From: Armatimonadota bacterium
GTDB taxonomy: Bacteria > Sysuimicrobiota > Sysuimicrobiia > Sysuimicrobiales > Humicultoraceae
Length of the DNA: 26,260 nt
NCBI GenBank assembly: GCA_037443365.1
Contig: JBBIOM010000028.1
Span: 1-26,260, forward strand
Direction: 5' to 3'
Made by a program: the position numbers and the translations under genes. Every line of letters begins with the position of its first letter. Positions within the stretch are counted from its first letter, which is position 1. Shown here one piece after another: positions 12,396 to 26,260 of this stretch. The notes under the pieces were generated by a model, which saw nothing but the letters and a program-made list of their open reading frames with translations, was not told the origin of the DNA and did not search any database.

Positions 12396-14819
<2,424 letters not shown>

Positions 14820-14931: not shown

Positions 14932-17235
14932 CTACTGCGGCGCTAGCACCAGCCTTCCGGCAGCGGCCTCCTCGATCTTCTGCCGCGAGAACAGCAGCGG
15001 CACGTACTCGCCCCGGGCCCAGCGGCCCGCGTAGTCGCGGTAGTGCCGGTGGAAGGGTAGCCCGCTCTGCCCTGTGGTGTGGATCACAAGCGACCGGTCC
15101 CAGTCCGCCGGGTCGAGGATCTGCCGGTACGAGGCCACGATCACCTGGCGGAACGGCTCCTCGGGGTTGAAGGCGCTGTTGTTGACGGTGAAGGCGTCGC
15201 CGCCTACCTCAGGCGGCGTCGTGTTGAAGATCCAGCCGAGCGCCTTGATGCGCCCGATCGGATGCACGAATGTCGGCTGGTGCAGGCGTCCCCATCGCCA
15301 CCTGTCGCGGTTGGATCCGAGCCGGCCTTCCAGCGTGCGTACCGCGTCGCGCAGGGCGGCTTCCACGAGCCGGTCGCGGCTGCCCCGCCACCAGCCGGAG
15401 GACGGGTCGCGCAGGAGCGCGAGCAGCGTCTGCACCGCTCCCTCGAACTCCCGCTGGTAGCGCGCGAAGGTCGCGTCATCAAGCGGCGTGCGGAACACCT
15501 CCCGGATGAGGGCTTCCAGGAGCGCCTGGTAGACGGCCGCGGGCCGGCTGGAGGGAGCGAGCACGCCATCCCACGCGAGCAGCTCGGCGAAGAGCGGCTG
15601 CAAGGCGGGGTCGAGGATTCGCACCGAGCGCAGCGCCTCTACCAGCGCCTGCCCGGGCAGCGAGGTCACGTCCATGTGGATGCGCCCGAAGGTCTGGGCC
15701 GAGTGGGTGCCTTCGGAGAGAAGCGCCGTGATGCGGCGCGCGCGGTAGCCCACGTCCCAGTCGCGGCCCAGGAAGTGCGGGTAACCCGGCGGCGCGATGC
15801 GGTTGTTGGCGGTGACTATGAATCCGGCGCGACGGTGGACGCTGGGGAGCGCCTCGAACGGCAGCCATCCTGTCCACTCATACTCGCCGGTCCACCCGGG
15901 GGCAGGCATCGCGCCCGTGCCCTTTGCCCGCACCGGGACGAGCCCGGGCATCTGGTAGCCGATCTCGCCGTTCCTGTGGGCGAACACGAAGTTCTGTGAC
16001 GGCGCGTCCCACGCGCGCAGCGCCTGCCGGAACTCTTCCCAGGTGGTCGCGCGGTTGATCCCGTCCACCGCCTCGATTATGTTGCTGGATTCCAGCGCGG
16101 TCCAGCGCAGCGCCAGCGTGGCGTGCAGCCCGCGCACGACGTTGTTGAGGATCGGGCCGTGGCGTGTGATGCGCACGATCTCGACCACCGGCTCGCTTCG
16201 GCCCTTGACCTTGATCGTCTCACGGACAACGGTCGCCGGGATCCACTGCCCCTTGTGCAGGTAACGTGTGGGATCCTCGGGATGAAACCGCTCAATGTAT
16301 AGGTCCTGCACGTCGGGGTTGGCGTTGGTCACGCCCCAGGCGATGTCGCGGTTGTGCCCGACGATGACGCCGGGCGTGCCCGGGAACGTGGCCCCGGCCA
16401 CATCGTAGGGCCCGCCGCTCAGGTGCATCAGGTACCAGATAGAGGGCATCTGGGCTTCCAGGTGCGGGTCGTTGGCCAGCAGCGGGGTCTTGGTCTCGGT
16501 GCGATCCCCGGCGACCACCCAGTTGTTGCTGCCGATCCCGGGGAGACTCTGCAGGCCCGTCCCGGGCAGGCGCCACCCGCCCGTGATACTGGGCGCGTCG
16601 GGCGGGTAGTCGGGCAGGAGCCGCTCCAGCGCGCCTTCGCCGAACCGCTCGACGAGCTGCTGGCGCAGTATCTCCATCCGCCAGTCGCCGCCCAGCACCC
16701 ATGCCATCAACTTGCCGTAGGACAGGCTGTCGGCCGGGGTCCAGGGCTCCGGGGCGAAGCGCAGCAGCACGAACTCTATCGGGAGCCGGCCGCGCGCCTG
16801 CGCGATGAAGGCGTTCACCCCGGCGGCGTAGGCCTCCAGGTTCTGCTTCGTCTGCGGGCTGACCGCGCCCAGGTGCGCCTCGGCCACGCGCCGCAGGCCG
16901 AGCGTGCGCAGGAACCGGTCGGTCGGCAGCGCCGCCTCGCCGAAGATCTCGGATAGCCGGCCAGCGGCGGTGCGGCGGTTGAGTTCCATCTGCCACAGGC
17001 GGTCCTGCGCGTGCACGAAGCCCTGCGCGAAGAACACGGAGCGGGCCGAACGCGCGAAGATGTGCGGGATCCCCCAGCGGTCGCGCACCACTTCTGCGGG
17101 ATCGCCCAGGCCCTGCACGCGCACGGTCCCGGAGATCTGGGGGAATGGGCGGCGCGCCAGGTAGACCCCGGCACCCCCCGCGGCGACGGACGCGGCCAGG
17201 ACGAGCACGAGCAGGCCGAGCAGCACTCGACGCAT
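14932..17235 (-). CDS. Penicillin acylase family Ntn-hydrolase (peptidase S45) with N-terminal signal/anchor
   Basis: RDRWGIPHI, QGFVHAQDRLWQM, the autocleavage site G|SNNW (Ser236, codon at 16530-16528), LLANDPHL, TRHGP, TANN and GQSG. Hydrophobic N-terminus. Confidence 0.92.
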   Translation of the reverse strand: MRRVLLGLLVLVLAASVAAGGAGVYLARRPFPQISGTVRVQGLGDPAEVVRDRWGIPHIFARSARSVFFAQGFVHAQDRLWQMELNRRTAAGRLSEIFGEAALPTDRFLRTLGLRRVAEAHLGAVSPQTKQNLEAYAAGVNAFIAQARGRLPIEFVLLRFAPEPWTPADSLSYGKLMAWVLGGDWRMEILRQQLVERFGEGALERLLPDYPPDAPSITGGWRLPGTGLQSLPGIGSNNWVVAGDRTETKTPLLANDPHLEAQMPSIWYLMHLSGGPYDVAGATFPGTPGVIVGHNRDIAWGVTNANPDVQDLYIERFHPEDPTRYLHKGQWIPATVVRETIKVKGRSEPVVEIVRITRHGPILNNVVRGLHATLALRWTALESSNIIEAVDGINRATTWEEFRQALRAWDAPSQNFVFAHRNGEIGYQMPGLVPVRAKGTGAMPAPGWTGEYEWTGWLPFEALPSVHRRAGFIVTANNRIAPPGYPHFLGRDWDVGYRARRITALLSEGTHSAQTFGRIHMDVTSLPGQALVEALRSVRILDPALQPLFAELLAWDGVLAPSSRPAAVYQALLEALIREVFRTPLDDATFARYQREFEGAVQTLLALLRDPSSGWWRGSRDRLVEAALRDAVRTLEGRLGSNRDRWRWGRLHQPTFVHPIGRIKALGWIFNTTPPEVGGDAFTVNNSAFNPEEPFRQVIVASYRQILDPADWDRSLVIHTTGQSGLPFHRHYRDYAGRWARGEYVPLLFSRQKIEEAAAGRLVLAPQ

Positions 17236-17353
17236 GATGCACCCCGGCGGTGAAGAATGGACGCCGAGGTCTTCGCCCCTCGGCCGCGTCCTCCTCTGGC
17301 GCCGGCATGCCTATGCGGACTATGATGGAGCGGAACTTCCGTTTGGGGGACCG

Positions 17354-19873
17354 ATGCCAGCATCCGCACCATCAGCCGGGTACCACCGGCTCCGCGCCGC
17401 CGGAATCTCGCTGGCGGCCAGCGTGGCCGTTCTGGGGGTCAAGGTGGCCGCCTACCTGGTCACCGGGTCGGTGGCGCTGCTCAGTGACGCCGCGGAGTCG
17501 GTGGTCAACATCCTGGCGGCGAACATCGCGCTAGTGAGCCTGCTCGTCGCATCTCGCCCCGCCGATGAGGGGCATCAGTACGGGCACGCCAAGGCCGAGT
17601 ACGTGAGCAGCGCCACCGAGGGCGCGATGATCGCGGCGGCCGGGGGCTGGATCGTGCTGACCGCGGCCCGCCGGCTGCTCGACCCGCGGCCGCTCGCCCA
17701 CCTGCCTGCCGGCCTCCTCCTGCTCGTGGTGGGCACGGCGCTGAACCTGGGCGTCGCCCTCTACCTGCTGCGCGTGTCGCGCTCCGAGCGGTCCATAGCG
17801 CTCGAGGCATCGGCCCGGCACCTGCTCTCCGACGTCATCACCTCCGCTGGCGTCTTCGTCGGGCTGGGGCTGGTGACCGCCACGAGATGGCTGCCGCTCG
17901 ACGCGATCGCTGCCGCCCTCGTGGGCGCCAACATCGGCTGGATGGGCGCATCCCTGCTGCGGCGCTCGATCAGCGGCCTGATGGATGCGCGGTTCCCGCC
18001 GCAGGACGAGGAAAGGATCCGCGCGGTCTTCGATGCGCACCGCGGCGACGTGGTGGAGTACCACGCGATGCGCACGCGCCAGGCCGGCGCCGATCGGTTC
18101 CTCGACCTGCACCTGGTGCTGCACAGGTCGCTCTCGGTAGGCCAGGCGCACACCATCTGCGACCACCTGGAGCACCACCTGGAAGAGGCGCTGCCCGGCG
18201 TGGACGTGACGATACACGTGGAGCCCTGCAGCGCCGCCTGCCCACGGTGCTCTGCCCAAGCGCAGGACCGGCTGCGCGAATGGCAGGAGGCGGGATTCGC
18301 GCAGCGCATCTGGGCCAGAGACGCGACCCTTTGGTCGGCCGCGTGGCCGGGCGGCCCTGCCCCTGAACTGGCCGACCGTCTCGGGTGGCTTGCCCTTCCC
18401 GATACGATGCAGGGCCAGATCGCCGACCTCGAGGACTTTGCGCGCGAGATTGCCGGGGCCGGGGTGCGCCATGTCGCGCTGCTGGGAATGGGCGGGTCGA
18501 GCATGGCTCCCGAGGTGTTCGGGCGCACGTTCGGCGCGGCGCCGGGCGCTCCAGGACTGATCGTCCTCGACAGCACGCACCCCGCGGCGGTGCGGCGCGT
18601 CGAGTCGCAGATGGACCTCGGCCGCACGCTGTTCGTTGTCTCCAGCAAGTCAGGAACCACGCCCGAGACGCTGTCCTTCTTGCGGTACTTCTGGAGCCGC
18701 GTCGCCCAGAAAGATGCGCGGCCCGGGCAGCGGTTCGTGGCCATCACCGATCCAGGGACCCCGCTCGAGCGCCTGGCCCAGGAGCGCGGCTTCCGCCGCG
18801 TGTTCCTGGGACCGCCTGACGTGGGCGGGCGGTACTCGGCCCTCTCGGTCTTCGGGCTGGTGCCGGCCGCGCTGCTGGGAGTTGACCTGCGGCGCCTGCT
18901 CGCCCGGGCGCGGCGGATGGCCGCGGACTGCGGGCCTTCATCACCCGCGCCGCGCAGCCCTGGGCTGGTGCTGGGGGCCGTGCTCGGGGAGAACGCAATG
19001 GCCGGGCGCGACAAGCTGACCCTGCTGGCTTCGCGCTCGCTGGCAGGGCTGCCGGCCTGGATCGAACAGCTCGTCGCCGAGAGCACCGGCAAGGATGGGA
19101 AGGGCATCGTGCCGATCGCGGACGAGCCGCTGGCAGCGCCGCTGCGGTACGGCGCCGATCGCGTCTTCGCCTACGTGCGCCTGGCCGACGATCCCGCGGA
19201 AGACCTGCACGCCTTGGCGAGCGCGCTCGAGGCCGCCGGACATCCTGTCTTCCACCTGGGCTTGGCGGAGAAGGCCGATCTGGGCGCCGAGTTCTTCAGG
19301 TGGGAGATGGCCGTGGCAGCGGCCGGGGCCGCACTTGGCATCCACCCGTTCAATCAACCCGACGTGCAACTGGCCAAGGACATGGCGAGAGAGGCCATGG
19401 CACGGCGCGCGGCCGCGGACGGGCGTACTGCTGACCTGGATGTGCCGGACGCTGCCACAGGCGATTGGGCGACATGGCTGCGCCCTGGCGACTACCTGGG
19501 GCTGCAGGTGTACCTGGCACCTGACGAGACCACCACGGCGCTGCTTGCGGAGATACGGCGCGCCGTCGCGGACCGCTATGGCGTGGCCACGACCCTGGGC
19601 TACGGTCCGCGCTTCCTGCACTCCACCGGGCAGCTTCACAAGGGCGGGCCCCAAAGCGGGGTCTTCGTGCAGATCGTGGACGATCCCGCAGACGACCTGG
19701 AGATACCGGAGGAGGGCTACACCTTCGGCGAACTGATCAGGGCCCAGGCCATGGGCGACCTGCGCGCCCTGGCTCAGCGCGGGCGTCGCGTCGCAAGAAT
19801 GAACGTGGGCAGGGATGCCCCCGGCGCCCTGGCGCGTCTCGCTCAGCGCTTGGTCAGTGCACCGGGCCCTTGA
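17354..19873 (+). CDS. Fusion protein: CDF cation efflux transporter (about 17354-18250) plus glucose-6-phosphate isomerase of the Tal-Pgi type (about 18251-19873), 839 aa
   Basis: CDF motifs: GSVALLSDAAES, HQYGHAKAEY, HLLSD, six hydrophobic segments, and the C-terminal domain YHAMRTRQAG..FLDLHL..IHVEP. PGI motifs: GMGGS, SSKSGTT.ET, VGGRYSALS, EQLVAESTGK.GKG, PFNQPDV..AK and GPRFLHSTGQLHKGG. There is no stop between the domains. RBS GGGGGA precedes ATG 17354. Confidence 0.88.
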   Translation: MPASAPSAGYHRLRAAGISLAASVAVLGVKVAAYLVTGSVALLSDAAESVVNILAANIALVSLLVASRPADEGHQYGHAKAEYVSSATEGAMIAAAGGWIVLTAARRLLDPRPLAHLPAGLLLLVVGTALNLGVALYLLRVSRSERSIALEASARHLLSDVITSAGVFVGLGLVTATRWLPLDAIAAALVGANIGWMGASLLRRSISGLMDARFPPQDEERIRAVFDAHRGDVVEYHAMRTRQAGADRFLDLHLVLHRSLSVGQAHTICDHLEHHLEEALPGVDVTIHVEPCSAACPRCSAQAQDRLREWQEAGFAQRIWARDATLWSAAWPGGPAPELADRLGWLALPDTMQGQIADLEDFAREIAGAGVRHVALLGMGGSSMAPEVFGRTFGAAPGAPGLIVLDSTHPAAVRRVESQMDLGRTLFVVSSKSGTTPETLSFLRYFWSRVAQKDARPGQRFVAITDPGTPLERLAQERGFRRVFLGPPDVGGRYSALSVFGLVPAALLGVDLRRLLARARRMAADCGPSSPAPRSPGLVLGAVLGENAMAGRDKLTLLASRSLAGLPAWIEQLVAESTGKDGKGIVPIADEPLAAPLRYGADRVFAYVRLADDPAEDLHALASALEAAGHPVFHLGLAEKADLGAEFFRWEMAVAAAGAALGIHPFNQPDVQLAKDMAREAMARRAAADGRTADLDVPDAATGDWATWLRPGDYLGLQVYLAPDETTTALLAEIRRAVADRYGVATTLGYGPRFLHSTGQLHKGGPQSGVFVQIVDDPADDLEIPEEGYTFGELIRAQAMGDLRALAQRGRRVARMNVGRDAPGALARLAQRLVSAPGP

Positions 19874-20472: not shown

Positions 20473-22002
20473 TCAGGGCGCTGCCGTGATCACCAGCGGC
20501 GCCCGGCAGATCGGCCGGCCGGCCGCGTCCTTGGGGGTCAGGGTCACCGTGCGTGCGCGGCTGCTGATGTCCACCCTGACGTAGGTGTAGCGATCCACAA
20601 CAGCGCAGCTCATGCCCACGCCCTGCGGAACCGGGGCGGTGAGGAAGGCCAGCAACGCCGGTACGACGGCGCGCCCGGCCATGCCGGCAACCGACTCGCC
20701 GTAGGGCGTCGCCGCTATCGGGCCGGTGACGACCTCCTTCATACCCGTCGTCTCAAACGGCGGAGTGAAGGTGGAGAGGCGCACGTCGTTGACGAACGTG
20801 GCATGAGTGTCGCCGGTTAGCCACACCACGTTCTTGATGCCGCTTGTTCTGATGAAGGTGAGGATCTCTGCGCGTTCGGCCGCGTATCCCTCCCACCTGT
20901 CGTAAGGGTTGGCGAAGAACTCCTGGATCGGAGTCTGGTTCAGGATCAGCTTCCACGTGGCGGTGCTGCGGGCCAGCTCGCGCTTCAGCCAGATCTTCTG
21001 GCCGATCCCCAGCATCGTGCGGTTGGGATCGGCGAGCGTCTCCTGGCACCCCGGGGGAGAGGGCAGACGCATCTGCGGAACCAGGGGGGCGAAGGCCGCC
21101 CTGATGGCAGGCGGCAGCGTGGGCGCCAGGTCGGGCGTCCTGCTCCCGGGCGGGTTGTCGCAGACCGGGGTGCTGCTCGCGTGGCGGCTCCGGTACGACC
21201 GCCCGTCGAGCACGAACAGCTCGATCTCGCGCCCCCAGCGGAACTTGCGGTAGATGCGGCCTCCGGGCTGTTCGGCGATCGGCGAGTACTCCATGAATGC
21301 CCTGTGCCCTTCCGCCCACCTCCGGGGATCCACCGTCTCGCGCGCATAGTCGTTCTCGACCTCGTGGTCGTCCCAGGTGGTTATCATCGAGGTGCTCGCC
21401 ATGAAGTTGCGGAACGTGGCGATGGACCGGATCTCCTTGTACTTCGCGCGGTATGCCTCCAGGGTGAAGATGGGATTGGGCACGAGCGACGAGTCCGGGT
21501 AGATGTTGTCGCCCAGGTGCGCGAAGAAGTCGGGCCGGTCGGCGACCACGGCGTCCAGCAGCCCCAGCGACAGCGCCGGGACGCCGCCCACGTACCCTCC
21601 GTCGGAGCACGCCGAGTACGCGAAGGTCAGGTCGGCAGAGGCGTCCGCTGCCGGAGGGGTCACGAAGGTTCCGGTCTGGGAGTAGGCGCCGCCCCCGGAG
21701 CGGAAGCGGTACTGGTACCGGGTGGCCGGTGTCAGCCCCGAAGCCAGGATCTTCACCGTGAGATCACGCTCTGGGCTCGGCACAACGGTGCGCTCGAAGA
21801 CGAGCGACGCAAACCGTGGATCCGCTGACACCTCTACGGAGACCGGAGCGCTCCGCGCCGAGCGCGTCCAGAGCACCGCCGACGTCTCGCGCACGTCCCC
21901 TGAGGCCACGCCGTGCGGGAACAGCAACGCGACCTGCGAGAGCAGCGGCGCCTGCGCCACGACAACGGCGGCGGCGACGATTGCGATAGTGATTGCCCGC
22001 AT
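20473..22002 (-). CDS. phoD: Alkaline phosphatase D family phosphoesterase
   Basis: [14 protein letters not shown], metal-ligand motifs (SACSD, GDNIYPD, WDDHE, TGDTH), LDGRSYRS and [11 protein letters not shown]-terminal signal peptide. Confidence 0.9.
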
Positions 22003-22128
22003 CGGGGTCCCCCTGTGGAATGCAGATGGTTGCCGCCCTCCAGGACGGCAACGGCTAGGGGATTCGTCCTGGTGTGCCGAAGCCCTCTCGCACTACCGCC
22101 CGGTGACGGACGGTCTGGAGGTGGACGC

Positions 22129-22671
22129 GTGATATACATCGTCGCGATCCTTGCATTGCTTGCGCTGTTCGTCGTTGCGCTCTACAACCGGTTGGTGGTC
22201 TTCCGCAACCGGATAGACAACGCCTGGTCTCAGATTGACGTGCAGCTCCGCCGGCGCTACGACCTGATCCCCAACCTGGTGGAGACCGTGAAGGGGTACG
22301 CGACCCATGAGCGCGAGGTGTTCGAGCGCGTGACAGAGGCGCGCTCCAGGGCCATCGCCGCGGGAAGCGTGGGCGAACAGGGGCAGGCGGAGAACATGCT
22401 GAACCAGGCGCTGCGCAGCCTCTTCGCGGTGGCGGAGAACTACCCCCAGCTGCGCGCCAGCGAGAACTTCATGCACCTCCAGGAGGAGCTGAGCGGCACC
22501 GAGAGCAAGATCGCCTTCGCCCGTCAGTTCTACAACGACACGGTGCTGCGCTACAACAACACCCGGCAGGCGTTTCCCGCCGTGTTGATAGCCGGCGCGC
22601 TGGGCTTCGGTCCGCGCGAGTACTTCGAGATGGAGGAGGCGGCGCGGGAGCCGGTCAAGGTGGCGTTCTAG
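22129..22671 (+). CDS. lemA: LemA family protein, 180 aa
   Basis: N-terminal TM helix, then [43 protein letters not shown] and ARQFYND. RBS GGAGGT precedes GTG 22129. Confidence 0.93.
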
Positions 22672-23363
22672 CGGGCTTCGGCCGCCACGTCCCCTGCGGG
22701 GGCCAGGTGGAGGTGCGCCACCAGCGCCAGCCCGGCCTGCCGCACGTGGCGGCGCATCGAGTCCTCCGCCGCGGCAGGGTTCCTGCGCCTGATGGCCTCA
22801 ACCACTGCCACGTGCTCCTGAAGCGAGGCGGGCAGCCGCCCTGGTAGCTTCGCCGAGGTACTGATCAGCAGGCGTATCTGCCCGCCGAACGAGTCTCCGA
22901 CCCTCGACAGCCGCCGATTTCCGGAGGCCTCCCGCAGTCTCCTGTGGAAGGCCAGGTCCAGATCCCCGTACTCCTCCACGTCACCCTTCCTGACCGCGGC
23001 GCGCTGCCTGGAGAGCAGGCGGTCAAGGTCGGCGACCAGGTCCTTGTCCGCCCGCCCCGCGGCCAGTCTCGACGCCAGCCCCTCGATCACCTCTCGCAGT
23101 GCGTACAGCTCCTCGATATCGTGCAGGGTGATGCGCGGTATGAAGTAGCCGCGGTGCGGAACTGCGGCCACCAGGCCCTCGCGCTCCAGGGCCGCGAGCG
23201 CCTCCTTGATTGGGGTTGGTGATAAGCCCAGCTCCTCCGCCAGAACACGGACGACCAGCTTCTGCCCAGGCACCAGCCGACGGTTGAGGATGGCCGAGCG
23301 CATCGCCCGATATGCCTCTCGCGAAAGGGTCGTGCGGCCGATGGCGTGGCGGATGGTAGGCAC
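22668..23363 (-). CDS. GntR-family transcriptional regulator with FCD domain (probable regulator of the divergent suyAB operon)
   Basis: Winged [31 protein letters not shown] motifs LREVIE, DLAFH..L..ASGN, EH..VVEAI and MRRH. Confidence 0.92.
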
Positions 23364-23369
23364 GCCCCA

Positions 23370-23398
23370 ATTATGGCGCGGCCCTATTGACTGGTCAA
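23370..23398 (-). promoter_or_regulatory. Sigma70-type promoter of gntR (TTGACC-N17-CATAAT), predicted leaderless transcript
   Basis: -35 at 23398-23393, -10 at 23375-23370, 17-nt spacer. The GTG start is the 7th nt after the -10. Confidence 0.7.
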
Positions 23399-23415
23399 GA
23401 TATTAAATCTAAAAT
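23387..23415 (+). promoter_or_regulatory. Sigma70-type promoter of the suyAB-SBP operon (TTGACT-N17-TAAAAT), with a candidate operator AGATATTAAATCT in the spacer
   Basis: -35 at 23387-23392, -10 at 23410-23415, 17-nt spacer. The near-palindrome at 23398-23410 sits in a conspicuously AT-rich patch. Confidence 0.7.
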
Positions 23416-23513
23416 CCATTTAGCCGAACCGGGGTGCTCGTTGGACGCAACGTCACCTTCCCAGGCGGCGACATGGAGATGCTGTCGCGGTACTTCTGAA
23501 GAGGAGAGTGACG

Positions 23514-23801
23514 ATGGGCTACGAAGCGCTGGCGCACCGCCGCAACGATCACGTGGCCGTCGCGGTGACCGACCTTGCCGCGGGCGCCGCTGTCGCAGTG
23601 AGAGTCCTGGAGGGCGGAGATCCGATCGCCGCCAGGGCGGTGGAGGCGATTCCCCTCGGGCACAAGATCGCGCTCACAGACCTTCCACAGGGCGCCGACG
23701 TCATCGAATACGGGGCGCGTATCGGGCGGACCACCCGGCCGGTCAAGGCAGGAGAGCACGTCCACGTTCACAACATCAAGAGCGTGAGGTGGTCGGCATG
23801 A
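23514..23801 (+). CDS. suyA: UxaA-family SAF-domain small subunit, probable (2R)-sulfolactate sulfo-lyase alpha subunit, 95 aa
   Basis: H...DHVAVAV.DL..G, IPLGHKIAL.DL..G..VIEYG..IG, GEHVHVHNIKS.RW. RBS GAGGAG; ATGA coupling to the next gene. Confidence 0.75.
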   Translation: MGYEALAHRRNDHVAVAVTDLAAGAAVAVRVLEGGDPIAARAVEAIPLGHKIALTDLPQGADVIEYGARIGRTTRPVKAGEHVHVHNIKSVRWSA

Positions 23802-24946
23802 AGCTGACCGGATACCGCAGGCCCAACGGTGCGGTCGGCGTTCGCAACTACGTCGCGGTCATCCCGCTCGACGACCTCTCGAACACGGCCGCCGAAGGGG
23901 TCGGGCGCCTTATACCGGGAGCCCTGGTGCTGCCCCATGCGTATGGACGACTGCAATTCGGCGAGGACCTCGACCTGTTCTTCCGCACGATGATCGGAAT
24001 CGGGGCGAACCCAAACGTTGCGTCCGCCGTCGTGGTCGGGATCGAGCCCAAGTGGACGCAGCGCCTTGCCGACGGGATAGCGAAGAGCGGCAAGCCGGTC
24101 GAGGCGTTCGCCATCGAGGGAGAAGGCGACCTGCGCACCATAGAGAAGGCCTCGCGGGCCGCCATGCGCCTCGTGGCCGACGCGAGCGAACTCGTGCGCG
24201 AACCGATCGAGATCGGGGACCTCACCCTCTCGATCAAGTGCGGCGAGTCGGACACGACGCTCGGCGCCGCAGGCAATCCCGCCCTGGGCCGGGCGATAGA
24301 CCAGTTCGTGGATGGGGGCGCAACGGTGATCTTCGGCGAGACCTCCGAGCTGACCGGAGGCGAGCATCTGATCGCCGAGCGCTGCGCCGCGCCCGAGGTG
24401 CGAGAGGCGTTCTTGCGCACGTACGAGGCATACATCGAGTTCATAAAGGGTACGGGCGCAGACCTTCTGGGCTCTCAGCCCACCGAGGGCAACATCGCCG
24501 GCGGGCTTTCGACCATAGAGGAGAAGGCCCTGGGCAACATCCAGAAGACCGGGACGAAGCCCGTTCGGTCTGTCCTGGCGCCGGCCGAGGCCCCGATCGG
24601 GCCTGGGCTCCACTTCATGGATACATCGAGCGCTGCGGCCGAGATGATAGTCCTGGCGGCGGCGGGGGGCTCGGTGCTCCACTTCTTCACCACCGGCCAG
24701 GGGAACGTCGTCGGCAACCCAATCGTGCCGGTGATCAAGATCTCTCCAAACCCCAGGACCGTCGGCACCATGGGCGAGCACATCGACGTGGATCTGACGC
24801 AGTTGCTGGCTGGCGAGATCGGGCTGGAGGAGGCGTCCCGCCGGATCATCGAGGTGTTCGAGAGGACAGTCTGCGGCAGGCTCACCAAGGCCGAACTGCT
24901 CGGACATAGGGAGTTCGTGCTGACGAAACTCTACAGGAGCGCGTGA
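23798..24946 (+). CDS. suyB: UxaA-family large subunit, probable (2R)-sulfolactate sulfo-lyase beta subunit, 382 aa
   Basis: It carries motifs I recall as characteristic of the SuyB clade rather than altronate/galactarate dehydratases: P.DDLSN.A, PHAYGRLQFGEDL..FRT.IG, GIEP.WT, SQPT.GNI.GGL.TIEEKALGN, MD.SSAAAE, TGQGNVVGNPIVPVIK and LGHREF..TKLYRSA. Confidence 0.8.
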   Translation: MKLTGYRRPNGAVGVRNYVAVIPLDDLSNTAAEGVGRLIPGALVLPHAYGRLQFGEDLDLFFRTMIGIGANPNVASAVVVGIEPKWTQRLADGIAKSGKPVEAFAIEGEGDLRTIEKASRAAMRLVADASELVREPIEIGDLTLSIKCGESDTTLGAAGNPALGRAIDQFVDGGATVIFGETSELTGGEHLIAERCAAPEVREAFLRTYEAYIEFIKGTGADLLGSQPTEGNIAGGLSTIEEKALGNIQKTGTKPVRSVLAPAEAPIGPGLHFMDTSSAAAEMIVLAAAGGSVLHFFTTGQGNVVGNPIVPVIKISPNPRTVGTMGEHIDVDLTQLLAGEIGLEEASRRIIEVFERTVCGRLTKAELLGHREFVLTKLYRSA

Positions 24947-24951
24947 GAACA

Positions 24952-24980
24952 GGCGCGCCGGCGGGAAGAGCGGGCGCGCC
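24952..24980 (+). other. Intergenic hairpin between suyB and the binding-protein gene
   Basis: Two copies of the self-complementary GGCGCGCC (24952-24959 and 24973-24980). There is no U-tract, so read-through is plausible. Confidence 0.4.
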
Positions 24981-25037
24981 CGGCAGATGTGAGGGTGACG
25001 ACGAGGTAGTTATCCGGACACGAAGGGGGAGACTGTG

Positions 25038-26260
25038 ATGAAGCTAAGACTGCTCGCAGTGGTGGCAGTGCTAGCGGTCGGGCTCGCCGTGGTTCCGGTT
25101 TCGGCCCAGGCGCCCGTAACGATCACCTGGAACACGCTCGCAACCGGCGGCCCCATTGTCGCCGACCTCTACCGGGCGCTCGCTGCGCAGTTCGAGCGGC
25201 AGAACCCGGGATACAAGGTCAACGTGGCGATTCAACCGGGTACGTCGGGTGAGCAGTACGCGCGATACGTCACGCTCTTCGCCGCGAAGGACCCGTCGGT
25301 GGACGTCATCTCGATCGACGTCATCTGGCCTGCGACGATGGTGGCTGCGGGCTGGTTGGCGCCGCTCGATCAGTGGTTCGTCCGCGAGAGGCGCGCCGAG
25401 TATCTGCCCGGCGCCGTGGCGGCCAATACGATAGGGGGCAAGGTCTACGGGGTGCCCTGGTACGCCGACGCAGGGCTGCTCTACTACCGAAAGGACCTGC
25501 TCGACAAGCACGGTGCCAAGGTGCCGGCGACTTGGGATGAGCTCATTGCGACCTCACAGCGGATCGTCACGGCCGAGCGCGATCCGGCGCTGGCCGGCTT
25601 CCTGTTCCAGGGCGCGCGGATCGAGGCGCTCGCCTGCTTCTTCTTCGAGATTCTGTGGGGGAACGGCGGCGACGTGCTCGACCGAGCCGGCAAGGTCACC
25701 CTGGACGACGGCAAGGGGCTGGCCGCGTTGAACTTCATGCTGGACTTCGTGAGGCGGCACCGCATCACGCCGCCCGGCGTCACCACCCTTCCCACCGACG
25801 ACACGCGCGTGGCGTTCCAGGACGGCCGCTACGTCTTCCTGCGCAACTGGACCTACGCGTACGCCATGTTCCAGGGTGAGGGCTCCAAGGTCGCGGGCAA
25901 GGTGGGCATCGCCCCGCTTCCGCGCGGCAGCGCCAGCAGCGCCACGACGCTCGGTGGCTGGCAGCTCGCGATCAGCGCCTTCTCAAGGAACAAGGAGGCC
26001 TCCTGGAGGTTCGTGGAGTTCCTGACCGGCCGGGTATCCCAGAAGAGCATGGCGCTGCAGCTCAGCACCGTGCCGACCCGGCATGACATCTTCGAGGACG
26101 AACAGGTGAAGCGGCAGGCACCGCACTACCCCGACATGCTGAAGGCGGTGCTCGGGGCGCGGCCTCGGCCCCAGACTGCGGAGTACCCGCGGCTGTCGAG
26201 CATCGTGCAAACCAACCTGCACGCGGCGCTGACAGGCCTGATCCCGCCCGAGGAGGCGAT
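25038..26260 (+). CDS. CUT1 sugar ABC transporter substrate-binding protein (trehalose/maltose/SmoF-like clade), 3' end truncated by the window
   Basis: Absent from the ORF track because there is no stop in the window. My translation: MKLRLLAVVAVLAVGLAVVPVSAQ (signal), then DVISIDVIWP, DAGLLYYRKDLL, PATWDEL, FQG, RNWTYAY, TLGGW and ARPRP...Y. RBS AAGGGGGAG. Confidence 0.9.
   Translation, partial: MKLRLLAVVAVLAVGLAVVPVSAQAPVTITWNTLATGGPIVADLYRALAAQFERQNPGYKVNVAIQPGTSGEQYARYVTLFAAKDPSVDVISIDVIWPATMVAAGWLAPLDQWFVRERRAEYLPGAVAANTIGGKVYGVPWYADAGLLYYRKDLLDKHGAKVPATWDELIATSQRIVTAERDPALAGFLFQGARIEALACFFFEILWGNGGDVLDRAGKVTLDDGKGLAALNFMLDFVRRHRITPPGVTTLPTDDTRVAFQDGRYVFLRNWTYAYAMFQGEGSKVAGKVGIAPLPRGSASSATTLGGWQLAISAFSRNKEASWRFVEFLTGRVSQKSMALQLSTVPTRHDIFEDEQVKRQAPHYPDMLKAVLGARPRPQTAEYPRLSSIVQTNLHAALTGLIPPEEA

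Follow-up and report, generated by a model that had tools for sequence, protein, structure and literature searches.

A predicted sulfolactate lyase beside a sulfosugar-type binding protein in Armatimonadota: a possible operon head for sulfosugar degradation

Sulfoquinovose is produced on a gigatonne scale, and the locus described here raises the question of whether a single bacterial cell could both import such a sulfonated sugar and carry its degradation through to the release of sulfite. The locus occupies one end of a 26,260-nucleotide stretch of DNA from an Armatimonadota bacterium (GenBank assembly GCA_037443365.1, contig JBBIOM010000028.1), which was analyzed over its full length and is hereafter called the window. 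There, a gene for a GntR-family regulator (22668-23363, minus strand) is divergent from two coupled, suyAB-like genes on the plus strand, which encode the small (23508-23801) and the large (23798-24946) subunits of a predicted sulfolactate lyase and are followed, on the same strand, by a gene for the solute-binding protein of a CUT1-type ATP-binding cassette (ABC) sugar importer (25038-26258). The list of open reading frames (ORFs) and Pfam searches confirmed all four genes at the positions assigned to them in the first-pass annotation, made from the DNA alone, and bear out its description of the arrangement, with the binding-protein gene 91 bp behind the lyase genes.

We interpret this arrangement as the head of a GntR-repressed operon in which the SuyAB lyase genes precede the gene for the binding protein of a SmoF-type sulfosugar importer, and we regard the chances of this interpretation as about even. 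In the proposed scheme, the binding protein would capture sulfoquinovose or sulfoquinovosyl glycerol in the periplasm-like space, an ABC permease, expected to be encoded just past the window, would import the sulfosugar, and a sulfoglycolytic route encoded elsewhere would cleave it to sulfolactaldehyde; once this was oxidized to sulfolactate, SuyAB would split the latter into pyruvate and sulfite, so that the cell would itself recover the carbon and sulfur of the C3 half and not excrete them. Because the contig ends within the binding-protein gene, and no sulfoglycolytic, racemase, or sulfite-exporter gene was found in the window, single-cell mineralization is something that we infer for this organism, whose genome would have to encode these functions. 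That a complete single-cell sulfoquinovose route exists is, in our estimate, a tentative proposition, with chances slightly short of even.

SuyAB lyases, SmoF-like binding proteins, and FadR-type regulators are each of already known kinds; what we did not find in the literature searched, including searches on Armatimonadota together with sulfoquinovose, is a lyase-first, sulfosugar-type-binding-protein-next order under one GntR regulator in Armatimonadota. In the available excerpts of a 2026 review, complete sulfoquinovose catabolism by a single organism is described as undemonstrated outside oxygenolytic routes, breakdown being otherwise two-tier, and in those of two other 2026 papers SuyAB is mentioned solely as an enzyme of the second tier or as a query used in screening (PMC12890257, PMC13372026). 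A parallel exists in the tandem sulfofucolytic-sulfolactate sulfolyase pathway of Paracoccus wurundjeri, which, in the excerpts available, combines an ABC sulfosugar importer with cleavage to sulfolactaldehyde and sulfite release by SuyAB, and whose authors call the coexistence of sulfosugar cleavage and SuyAB in one bacterium unusual (PMC12421959). However, that organism uses sulfofucose and an Entner-Doudoroff-like route, possesses SlcC and ComC, and is backed by proteomic and biochemical evidence, as excerpted from the same paper, whereas the window displays the lyase, the regulator, and the binding protein alone, and both its sugar and its route would follow from comparison. If our interpretation is true, a lyase operon tied to a sulfosugar importer would alter the two-tier view of sulfoquinovose breakdown, as would related loci with the genes of a whole route on one strand, and would shift the taxa to which sulfite released from the sulfolipid of plants and algae is assigned in soils, hot springs, and lakes. 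The window, suggestive though truncated, points to a testable pattern in several phyla that, by our searches, is undescribed.

The binding protein and its link to the lyase

What does the binding protein bind? Its N-terminus, as read from the translation, is hydrophobic and ends in AQA, as in a signal peptide, and the remainder is a CUT1 solute-binding protein (Pfam SBP_bac_1, 1.2e-43; SBP_bac_8, 5.2e-36); with the contig ending inside its gene and the 3' end lying beyond the window, it is about 14 residues short of full-length relatives of 421 aa. Among proteins of solved structure in the PDB, phmmer matched it to Thermotoga maritima MalE3 (6.3e-93), the trehalose/maltose-binding protein (TMBP) of Thermococcus litoralis (1.1e-80), and SmoF, the sulfoquinovosyl-glycerol binding protein of Agrobacterium tumefaciens (PDB 7NBZ/7OFY; 1.7e-76, over nearly full length). 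A plasmid search with the protein yielded 311 matching records, and the best annotated relatives among the matches listed are 37-41% identical to it. The Rhizobium cluster among them (locus L085) comprises LacI, UgpC, two permeases, an IlvD-like dehydratase, an HpcH-type aldolase, an SMP-30 lactonase, a short-chain dehydrogenase/reductase, and an alpha-glucosidase, and its GH31 protein is 47% identical to Escherichia coli YihQ and keeps the R-W-Y positions of that enzyme; by sequence, this gene make-up is that of a sulfo-Entner-Doudoroff (sulfo-ED) cluster. The cluster of Deinococcus peraridilitoris (L086), of the sulfo-Embden-Meyerhof-Parnas (sulfo-EMP) type, has a divergent GntR gene, a succinate-semialdehyde-type dehydrogenase, two permeases, a FucI-like isomerase, a PfkB kinase, a class I aldolase, a GH31-like protein, and an AEC exporter. 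A locus from Spirochaetia (L007) encodes a 36%-identical binding protein together with an SqvD-like protein, a transaldolase, an aldehyde dehydrogenase, SuyAB, and a LarA-like protein. The first-pass annotation had placed SmoF-type importers mainly in the monooxygenase route; the nearest annotated relatives of the window protein sit, instead, in sulfo-ED-type and sulfo-EMP-type clusters.

Phylogenetic analysis puts the window protein on the same side as the binding proteins of these clusters, which are of the sulfo-ED, sulfo-EMP, and sulfo-TAL types. The FastTree phylogeny of 121 rows (the window protein, five locus proteins, and 115 of the 120 listed homologs, five shorter than 370 residues having been dropped) divides into a 55-row half, with the window clade and all five sulfoquinovose-cluster proteins, and a 66-row half, with the Fervidobacterium MalE3-like proteins and the binders named in their sources for trehalose/maltose. 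A quick IQ-TREE analysis of 42 rows drawn from these recovered the split, 19 rows against 23, with SH-aLRT support of 97.6, the window protein falling with those of L007, L085, L086, and L087; both trees are unrooted, L007 is a long branch, and SmoF, MalE3, and TMBP themselves were not among the rows.

The split coincides with a residue that matters for sulfonate recognition. According to the available excerpts of the structural account, the sulfonate is contacted in SmoF by Thr220, by the backbone at Gly166 and Ser43, and by a water molecule that His13 and Gln46 hold (PMC8795539). Thr220 lies in the sequence ATDDTR, with which PTDDTR of the window protein, including T253 at the position of Thr220, aligns in the PDB alignment, whereas MalE3 has MEEDAR and TMBP has MTEEPVR at the same place; the SmoF motifs in this alignment also match those of the Rhizobium-type proteins that group with the window protein in the tree. 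Among the 121 rows, 51 have the motif xTDD[TS]R; every one of them belongs to the 55-row half and none to the 66-row half, where nearly all rows have Glu at the position of the threonine, a carboxylate that would be expected to repel a sulfonate. In view of the tree side and this threonine motif, the initial designation of the protein as SmoF-like stands, and the binding protein more likely than not takes a sulfonated sugar. It differs from SmoF in its genomic link, SmoF being tied to a monooxygenase and the window protein to a lyase, and is only about 37-41% identical to the SmoF-like rhizobial proteins.

The link to the lyase recurs in relatives. For comparison, loci were drawn from genomes as the best 80 of 530 confirmed SuyB matches, one genome per species, a set that is biased toward the window's relatives. 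The closest locus fetched, L001, also from Armatimonadota, has the same gene order, with the large subunit, the regulator, and the binding protein being 81%, 71%, and 78% identical to those of the window, respectively, and inserts one gene, for a GabD/ALDH21-like aldehyde dehydrogenase, between the lyase and the binding protein. Nine clusters of binding proteins have longest contigs of exactly the same size as those of lyase clusters (49,481; 9,015; 108,684; 6,410; 14,053; 13,039; 6,792; 10,840; and 24,657 bases), an indirect sign that the two genes share a contig, with lyase identity ranging down to 71%; to the 49,481-base contig belong a 93%-identical lyase (P0002) and a 96%-identical binding protein (P0271). 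Twelve aldehyde-dehydrogenase clusters likewise match lyase clusters in longest-contig size, with 108,684, 95,901, 141,649, and 73,076 bases among the long contigs that have homologs of both, the lyase, the binding protein, and the dehydrogenase all match at 108,684, 13,039, and 14,053 bases, and the L001 contig (24,657 bases) carries all three. Given its conservation in L001, the GntR/SuyAB/binding-protein arrangement is, as far as sequence comparison goes, beyond chance. Within the 91-nt spacer (24947-25037, plus strand), which has GGGGGAG just 5' of the binding-protein start codon (ATG at 25038, with an alternative GTG at 25035), the site scan detected no promoter-like or terminator-like site, and the lyase and binding-protein genes are presumably co-transcribed.

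Two peculiarities of the binding-protein gene came to light in the same comparison. That of L001 contains one in-frame TAG, with two codons more than in the window (13115-13117; VPW*WY compared with VPWY), so that it is either a pseudogene or affected by an assembly error. In addition, the assemblies of the window (at 26260) and of L001 (at 13963-13993, 30 bases past the gene), though independent of each other, both stop no more than a few dozen bases from where the gene ends, which suggests a repeat or a strain-variable stretch just 3' of it.

Several observations weigh against a sulfosugar operon. The segment 24944-25040 folds with -35.4 kcal/mol (z = -2.8; 2 of 200 shuffles were as stable), and the spacer contains a G+C-rich hairpin, without a U-tract, so that separate regulation or transcript processing is possible. 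Aldehyde dehydrogenases at least 72% identical to the L001 type were found on neither the 26,260- nor the 49,481-base contig. L006 and L020, the other members of a four-row lyase subclade with the window and L001, are without this binding protein: in L006:2887-5702 (Candidatus Thermofontivivens primus), genes for an alpha/beta hydrolase, an NMT1/SsuA-type binding protein, and an ABC ATPase come after a 75%-identical lyase, and L020 has no such binding protein or ATPase either. In light of the importer of L006, lyases of the window's subclade therefore pair with differing importers. Among solved relatives, MalE3 and TMBP outscore SmoF, which comes third, and the homologs are named in their sources mostly 'multiple sugar transport system' or 'ABC transporter substrate-binding protein', and in three cases for trehalose/maltose, names that carry no information on the ligand. 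NCBIfam returned no match to a SmoF model, only sub-threshold matches to generic sugar-binding proteins, and UgpB at 5.7e-5. Of the five positions of the SmoF sulfonate cluster, one, the threonine, is clearly kept: Gly166, a backbone contact, is replaced by Ala197; Ser43 and Gln46 align with S70 and Q73 in MAFFT but with G71 and Y74 in HMMER, the register shifting between TSGEQ and TSEMQ; and His13 is unaligned in the window protein, where the N-terminal stretch is five residues longer. Finally, none of 25 other pathway markers was found in the window when a tblastn panel of 27 queries from related loci was applied (E <= 1e-15, query coverage of 50% or more), and the sole matches were SuyB and the binding protein; the panel included, among others, TauE, Ldh_2, 2-hydroxyacid dehydrogenase, LarA, aldehyde dehydrogenase, YeiH-like, HpsN, kinase, aldolase, transaldolase, isomerase, GH31, sulfo-ED enzyme, and sulfite oxidase queries.

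Some of these points would be equally at home in a locus of two unrelated neighbors, namely, a GntR-controlled SuyAB that handles C3 sulfonates, such as sulfolactate or dihydroxypropanesulfonate (DHPS) released by other organisms and entering through a transporter encoded elsewhere, and a binding protein that starts an ordinary maltose/trehalose-type uptake operon. The top rank of MalE3 and TMBP, the generic or trehalose/maltose names, the spacer hairpin, the lack of sulfoglycolytic genes among the window matches, and the situation in L006 and L020, the NMT1/SsuA-type protein of L006 being typical of sulfonate uptake, all speak in favor of such neighbors; with an ordinary maltose/trehalose binder, what remained would be an ordinary sulfolactate lyase locus in a new phylum. 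We nevertheless consider this rather unlikely because the strongly supported split places the binding protein with those of the sulfoquinovose clusters and separates it from MalE3-like and trehalose/maltose-like proteins, and because it has Thr where the latter have Glu and is linked to SuyAB in L001 as well as, by the longest-contig matches, on nine contigs, with no promoter-like site in the spacer between them.

A different possibility is that the importer is indeed coupled to the lyase and brings in some sulfonate that is not sulfoquinovose, to be turned into sulfolactate before cleavage. Sulfoquinovosyl glycerol on its own, sulfofucose, a further sulfonated glycoside, and DHPS, as a sulfonate analog of glycerol phosphate, come into consideration. 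The occurrence of an aldehyde dehydrogenase with the lyase in L001 and on at least 12 related contigs fits this possibility, as does Rhodococcus, where the lyase and an aldehyde dehydrogenase are paired with a major facilitator superfamily (MFS) transporter and dehydrogenases suited to DHPS or sulfolactaldehyde; moreover, a sulfofucose route feeding SuyAB is known, as excerpted from the P. wurundjeri study (PMC12421959), and the threonine alone is clearly conserved among the sulfonate contacts. Yet the nearest binding proteins with informative neighbors belong to sulfoquinovose-type clusters, and the window protein is not UgpB-like, given the marginal NCBIfam score, so that we judge a different sulfonate to be unlikely.

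The two-subunit enzyme

Is the enzyme encoded upstream of the binding protein a sulfolactate lyase? The large, catalytic subunit (382 aa; Pfam GD_AH_second, 7.9e-31, and GD_AH_C, 8.7e-80) retrieved 274 plasmid records with tblastn; among the best 40 of these, 13 matches are 56.7-63.1% identical and the other 27 at most 41.5%. A similar gap appears in a library of representatives clustered at 50% identity, where 3976 proteins match at E <= 1e-3: the top representatives score 466, 412, and 408 bits (51-58% identity), and the next near-full-length one is 45% identical. E. coli UxaA and GarD are both at 28% identity, GarD being the sole relative of solved structure (6.6e-32).

The genomic context of the close relatives is that of sulfonate metabolism. 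At 59.2% identity (40% for the small subunit), the Cupriavidus pinatubonensis protein derives from a plasmid locus annotated as LacI, hpsN, hpsO, MFS transporter, dehydrogenase, small subunit, and large subunit, an order that matches the DHPS pathway layout of strain JMP134 in the available excerpts of two papers (PMC6278857, PMC9594981). The Paracoccus versutus locus (57.6%) combines a divergent GntR gene and both subunits with a 'putative sulfate exporter' and, nearby, a sulfite oxidase, and that of Rhodococcus koreensis (Rhodococcus large subunit, 63%) combines a divergent GntR gene and both subunits with an aldehyde dehydrogenase, an MFS transporter, and three dehydrogenases; the divergent GntR gene is thus shared by these two loci and the window. 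In genomic loci whose lyases are 58-67% identical to that of the window, TauE adjoins the suyAB pair (L002, L012, L075, and L079), Ldh_2 and/or 2-hydroxyacid dehydrogenases are found beside it in many cases, L022 has an HpsN-like gene, and L012 also encodes a molybdenum sulfite oxidase. The window differs from the known SuyAB loci in its armatimonad host, in having no HpsN, HpsO, HpsP, SlcC, ComC, TauE, or YeiH-like gene beside the pair, and in the CUT1 sugar-type binding protein that stands in place of MFS, tripartite ATP-independent periplasmic (TRAP), SDF, or SsuA-type transporters.

The first-pass annotation had described the large subunit as suyB-like and had called for a phylogeny against UxaA and GarD, which agrees with it. 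FastTree analysis with 152 rows (the window protein, those of 30 loci out of 80, three plasmid proteins, E. coli UxaA and GarD, and the 116 representatives, out of 150, that have 350-560 residues, with 34 representatives and 50 loci left out) yielded a 45-row clade with support 100 that contains the window and C. pinatubonensis proteins and excludes UxaA and GarD, both of which are far away. The same clade, with 27 rows, an SH-aLRT of 100, and a stem of 0.44, was recovered in a quick IQ-TREE analysis of 48 rows from the FastTree set. The window and L001 group with support 98-99 in the trees, and, in the IQ-TREE analysis, the two together with L006 and L020 with support 99. When the 22 lyases named beforehand for their informative context were constrained to form an exclusive clade, this was rejected (approximately unbiased test, p = 0.006), P0126, P0145, P0187, and P0264 nesting inside; the larger clades of 26 and 27 rows have support of 99 and 100.

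The cysteine residues tell a more equivocal story. In the excerpted account of the superfamily, four Cys are conserved across UxaA/GarD proteins except in the sulfo-lyase (PMC6336799). UxaA and GarD share four Cys columns, which, by their spacing, would correspond to Cys134/173/208/276 of that account; in the window protein, three of these columns are occupied by L, R, and a gap, and C148 alone is kept; all aligned clade members also lack three of the four. All four Cys are present in none of the 45 clade rows compared with 65 of the 107 others. The loss is in keeping with SuyB but insufficient as a diagnostic, 26 of the 107 rows outside the clade sharing the xR-C pattern, which weakens it as an argument. 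A further adverse point is that NCBIfam produced no SuyB-specific match for the large subunit; with no informative model in NCBIfam, the naming of the family therefore rests on trees and context.

The small subunit (97 aa; SAF domain, 4e-7) shares 57% identity with its L001 counterpart, 40% with the one encoded in the hps-suy locus of C. pinatubonensis, and 41% with the UxaA N-terminal domain of E. coli, and accordingly adds the architecture without, by identity, discriminating SuyA from a UxaA N-terminus. The large-subunit ATG overlaps the small-subunit TGA as ATGA, and the two genes are therefore translationally coupled. Coupled genes for a small SAF subunit and a large catalytic subunit are also the hallmark of SuyAB in Paracoccus pantotrophus NKNCYSA, C. 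pinatubonensis JMP134, and Desulfovibrio sp. DF1, the recombinant SuyA and SuyB of the latter, a clade-typical enzyme, cleaving sulfolactate according to the available excerpts (PMC6278857). Because the identity gaps, the locus context of the 57-63% group, and the trees agree, we consider the pair very probably a real sulfolactate lyase orthologous to SuyAB.

It is highly improbable that the pair is, instead, a heteromeric sugar-acid dehydratase of the UxaA/GarD superfamily whose sugar substrate is imported by the binding protein. In favor of a dehydratase, Pfam and NCBIfam recognize galactarate/altronate dehydratase domains alone, some sources name homologs D-galactarate dehydratase, and, in the excerpts of PMC6336799, one enzyme of this superfamily is inferred to be a heteromeric L-fuconate dehydratase. 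However, the galactarate dehydratase model TIGR03248 scores only 140.6 bits, its cut-off being 730.85; UxaA and GarD have low identity to the protein; the fully supported clade includes lyases with hpsN, TauE, or sulfite oxidase genes around them; of the four iron-binding Cys of the dehydratases, three are absent; and the split SAF and GD_AH architecture differs from the single chain of UxaA and GarD. The suggestion, made in the first-pass annotation, that the lyase might act on a different sulfonated sugar acid likewise found no support.

Sulfoglycolysis-type genes and a candidate racemase in related loci

Because the window ends where the remaining pathway genes would be expected, it is the relatives that bear on the plausibility of a one-cell route. 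Marker genes were counted within the fetched flanks of the lyase in the 80 loci, with the same tblastn panel, which under-detects TauE. Transaldolase was found in 14 loci, together with a FucI-like isomerase in nine; a PfkB kinase with an aldolase in 26; GH31 in six; a LarA-like protein in 14; and an aldehyde dehydrogenase in 10. Ldh_2 is near the lyase in 43 loci and 2-hydroxyacid dehydrogenase in 41, the two occurring together in 33, and eight loci have none of the counted pathway markers. Sugar-cleavage markers of any kind (transaldolase, kinase plus aldolase, or GH31) are present in 41/80. The initial view that SuyAB is usually accompanied by C3-sulfonate genes consequently needs to be amended: outside Proteobacteria, this is not mainly the case. 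Combinations of sulfoglycolysis-type genes with SuyAB are, by gene content, common among the window's relatives and, with such loci so frequent, a one-cell route is therefore plausible, if unproven, for the window.

The fullest of these loci comes from an uncultured Chloroflexia metagenome-assembled genome (L004:689-14536), in which Pfam identified eleven genes on one strand in the order SqvD-like isomerase, CUT1 binding protein, two permeases, transaldolase, GH31, YeiH-like exporter, SuyA, SuyB, LarA-like protein, and aldehyde:ferredoxin oxidoreductase. This set offers a candidate gene for every step of a sulfo-transaldolase plus sulfolactate-lyase route. L059 is similarly built, with ROK, a binding protein, a permease, GH31, transaldolase, SuyA, SuyB, and YeiH-like and LarA-like proteins. 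Relatives of this type, which on one strand would cover import, hydrolysis, isomerization, cleavage, oxidation, racemization, lyase, and export, name the enzymes and the organisms for a one-cell route.

The GH31 proteins of L004:6420-8519, L059:6625-8925, and L086:15228-17414 were considered as YihQ-type sulfoquinovosidases and rejected. They are 25-28% identical to E. coli YihQ, and the sulfonate triad of YihQ, which we take to be numbered R301, W304, and Y508, was not seen in them upon alignment, although it is present in the GH31 protein of Rhizobium L085. These proteins may be a different kind of sulfoquinovosidase, or none at all.

Another group of loci, of the Nanopelagicales/Planktophila type (L052:5134-18515 and 25 others, from the abundant freshwater acI Actinobacteria), has SuyAB beside a kinase-aldolase pair. 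Identity to the E. coli proteins is 46% for the aldolase (YihT, 7e-87) and 30% for the kinase (YihV); alongside are 2-hydroxyacid and Ldh_2 dehydrogenases, a YeiH-like protein, and a CUT1 transporter. In the literature searched on Nanopelagicales, Planktophila, and acI, we found no mention of sulfoquinovose.

Stereochemistry poses a further difficulty for a one-cell route in the window. In the available excerpts of three papers, sulfoglycolysis yields (S)-sulfolactate, SuyAB acts on the (R) form, and SlcC together with ComC inverts the center (PMC13436972, PMC11193023, PMC12421959). No racemase candidate was seen in the sequence at hand for the window, L001, and L020, leaving the (S)/(R) mismatch to weigh against the proposed scheme there; L006 has a 2-hydroxyacid dehydrogenase about 7 kb downstream of the lyase. 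For the armatimonad subclade, either the racemase would be encoded elsewhere or the lyase would accept (S)-sulfolactate.

Elsewhere among the relatives, a candidate solution stands next to the lyase. LarA-family genes are present in L002:11182-12501, L004:11301-12554, L005:10728-11987, L007:11279-12790, L027:11188-12447, and L059:12350-13609; in the Pfam-scanned loci L002, L004, L005, L007, and L027, the LarA-like gene lies directly 3' of suyB, but not so in L059. The hosts with this gene pair belong to Chloroflexota, Verrucomicrobiota, Spirochaetota, and Acidobacteriota, and an eight-row group that joins the LarA-associated lyases has support 98 in the IQ-TREE analysis. The best solved match of the LarA-like protein is the malate racemase Mar2 (1.1e-68), and sulfolactate is the sulfonate analog of malate. 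We propose the LarA-family protein as a candidate nickel-pincer sulfolactate racemase that could replace SlcC and ComC. A literature search, with supplements outside its scope, found no description of a sulfolactate racemase or of a LarA-type enzyme for that purpose, and neither 'sulfolactate' nor 'sulfo' is present in the main text of PMC11770544. A broader extension, which we regard as less likely than not, is that non-oxygenolytic single-cell sulfoquinovose mineralization is widespread outside Proteobacteria, with the window operon, its lyase and importer co-transcribed under a single GntR repressor, as its most compact form and a sister clade using the LarA-family sulfolactate racemase to bridge the (S)/(R) mismatch.

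Control region and neighboring genes

The regulator (231 aa) is of the FadR/FCD type, with an N-terminal winged-helix GntR domain (Pfam GntR helix-turn-helix, 3.6e-15) and a C-terminal FCD domain (2.2e-33). Besides the divergent regulator of L001 (71%), it is 57% identical to the regulator that precedes SuyAB-TauE in L075 and 48.5% identical to the GntR protein of the Deinococcus sulfo-EMP-type cluster, compared with just 33% for the regulators of the Rhodococcus and Prauserella SuyAB loci; with the regulator of the Paracoccus versutus SuyAB locus, there was no match. This closer kinship with a sulfoquinovose-type cluster speaks for the lyase and the importer forming one unit.

In the 144-nt divergent region (23364-23507), the promoter scan detected two promoter-like sites where 0.2 would be expected from shuffled sequences: TTGACT-17-TAAAAT on the plus strand (23387-23415), toward the lyase, and TTGACC-17-CATAAT on the minus strand (23398-23370), toward the regulator. 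The palindrome TTGACTGGTCAA at 23387-23398 supplies with its two halves the -35 boxes of both sites, and the intergenic region of L001 repeats the core of the palindrome and the A/T-rich stretch behind it, as CTTGACCAGTCAAG. This palindrome is a candidate operator for GntR, and its shared position would fit a FadR-type repressor that controls its own gene together with the lyase operon.

On its other side, the GntR gene overlaps the convergent LemA gene (21913-22671, plus strand) by 4 bases, and the sole terminator-like hairpin of the region (22564-22582, minus strand) lies within the LemA frame, 86 bases beyond the GntR stop codon. The window has a G+C content of 65-72% throughout, and its nearest homologs come from Armatimonadota metagenome bins. 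It is probably the complete contig, a large subunit identical to its own being on record from a contig of 26,260 bases. The upstream 22 kb encode functions unrelated to sulfonates: a branched-chain amino-acid ABC system, a 2-oxoacid:ferredoxin oxidoreductase, beta-oxidation enzymes, a penicillin-amidase-family protein, a protein with a bifunctional-nuclease domain, PhoD, LemA, and an ORF that joins a cation-efflux and a phosphoglucose-isomerase-like part. The latter (17234-19873, plus strand) is a single ORF of 879 codons, in which a cation-efflux (CDF) transporter with its dimerization domain runs into a phosphoglucose-isomerase-like domain with no stop codon between the parts, so that it is either a real fusion or the product of a lost stop.

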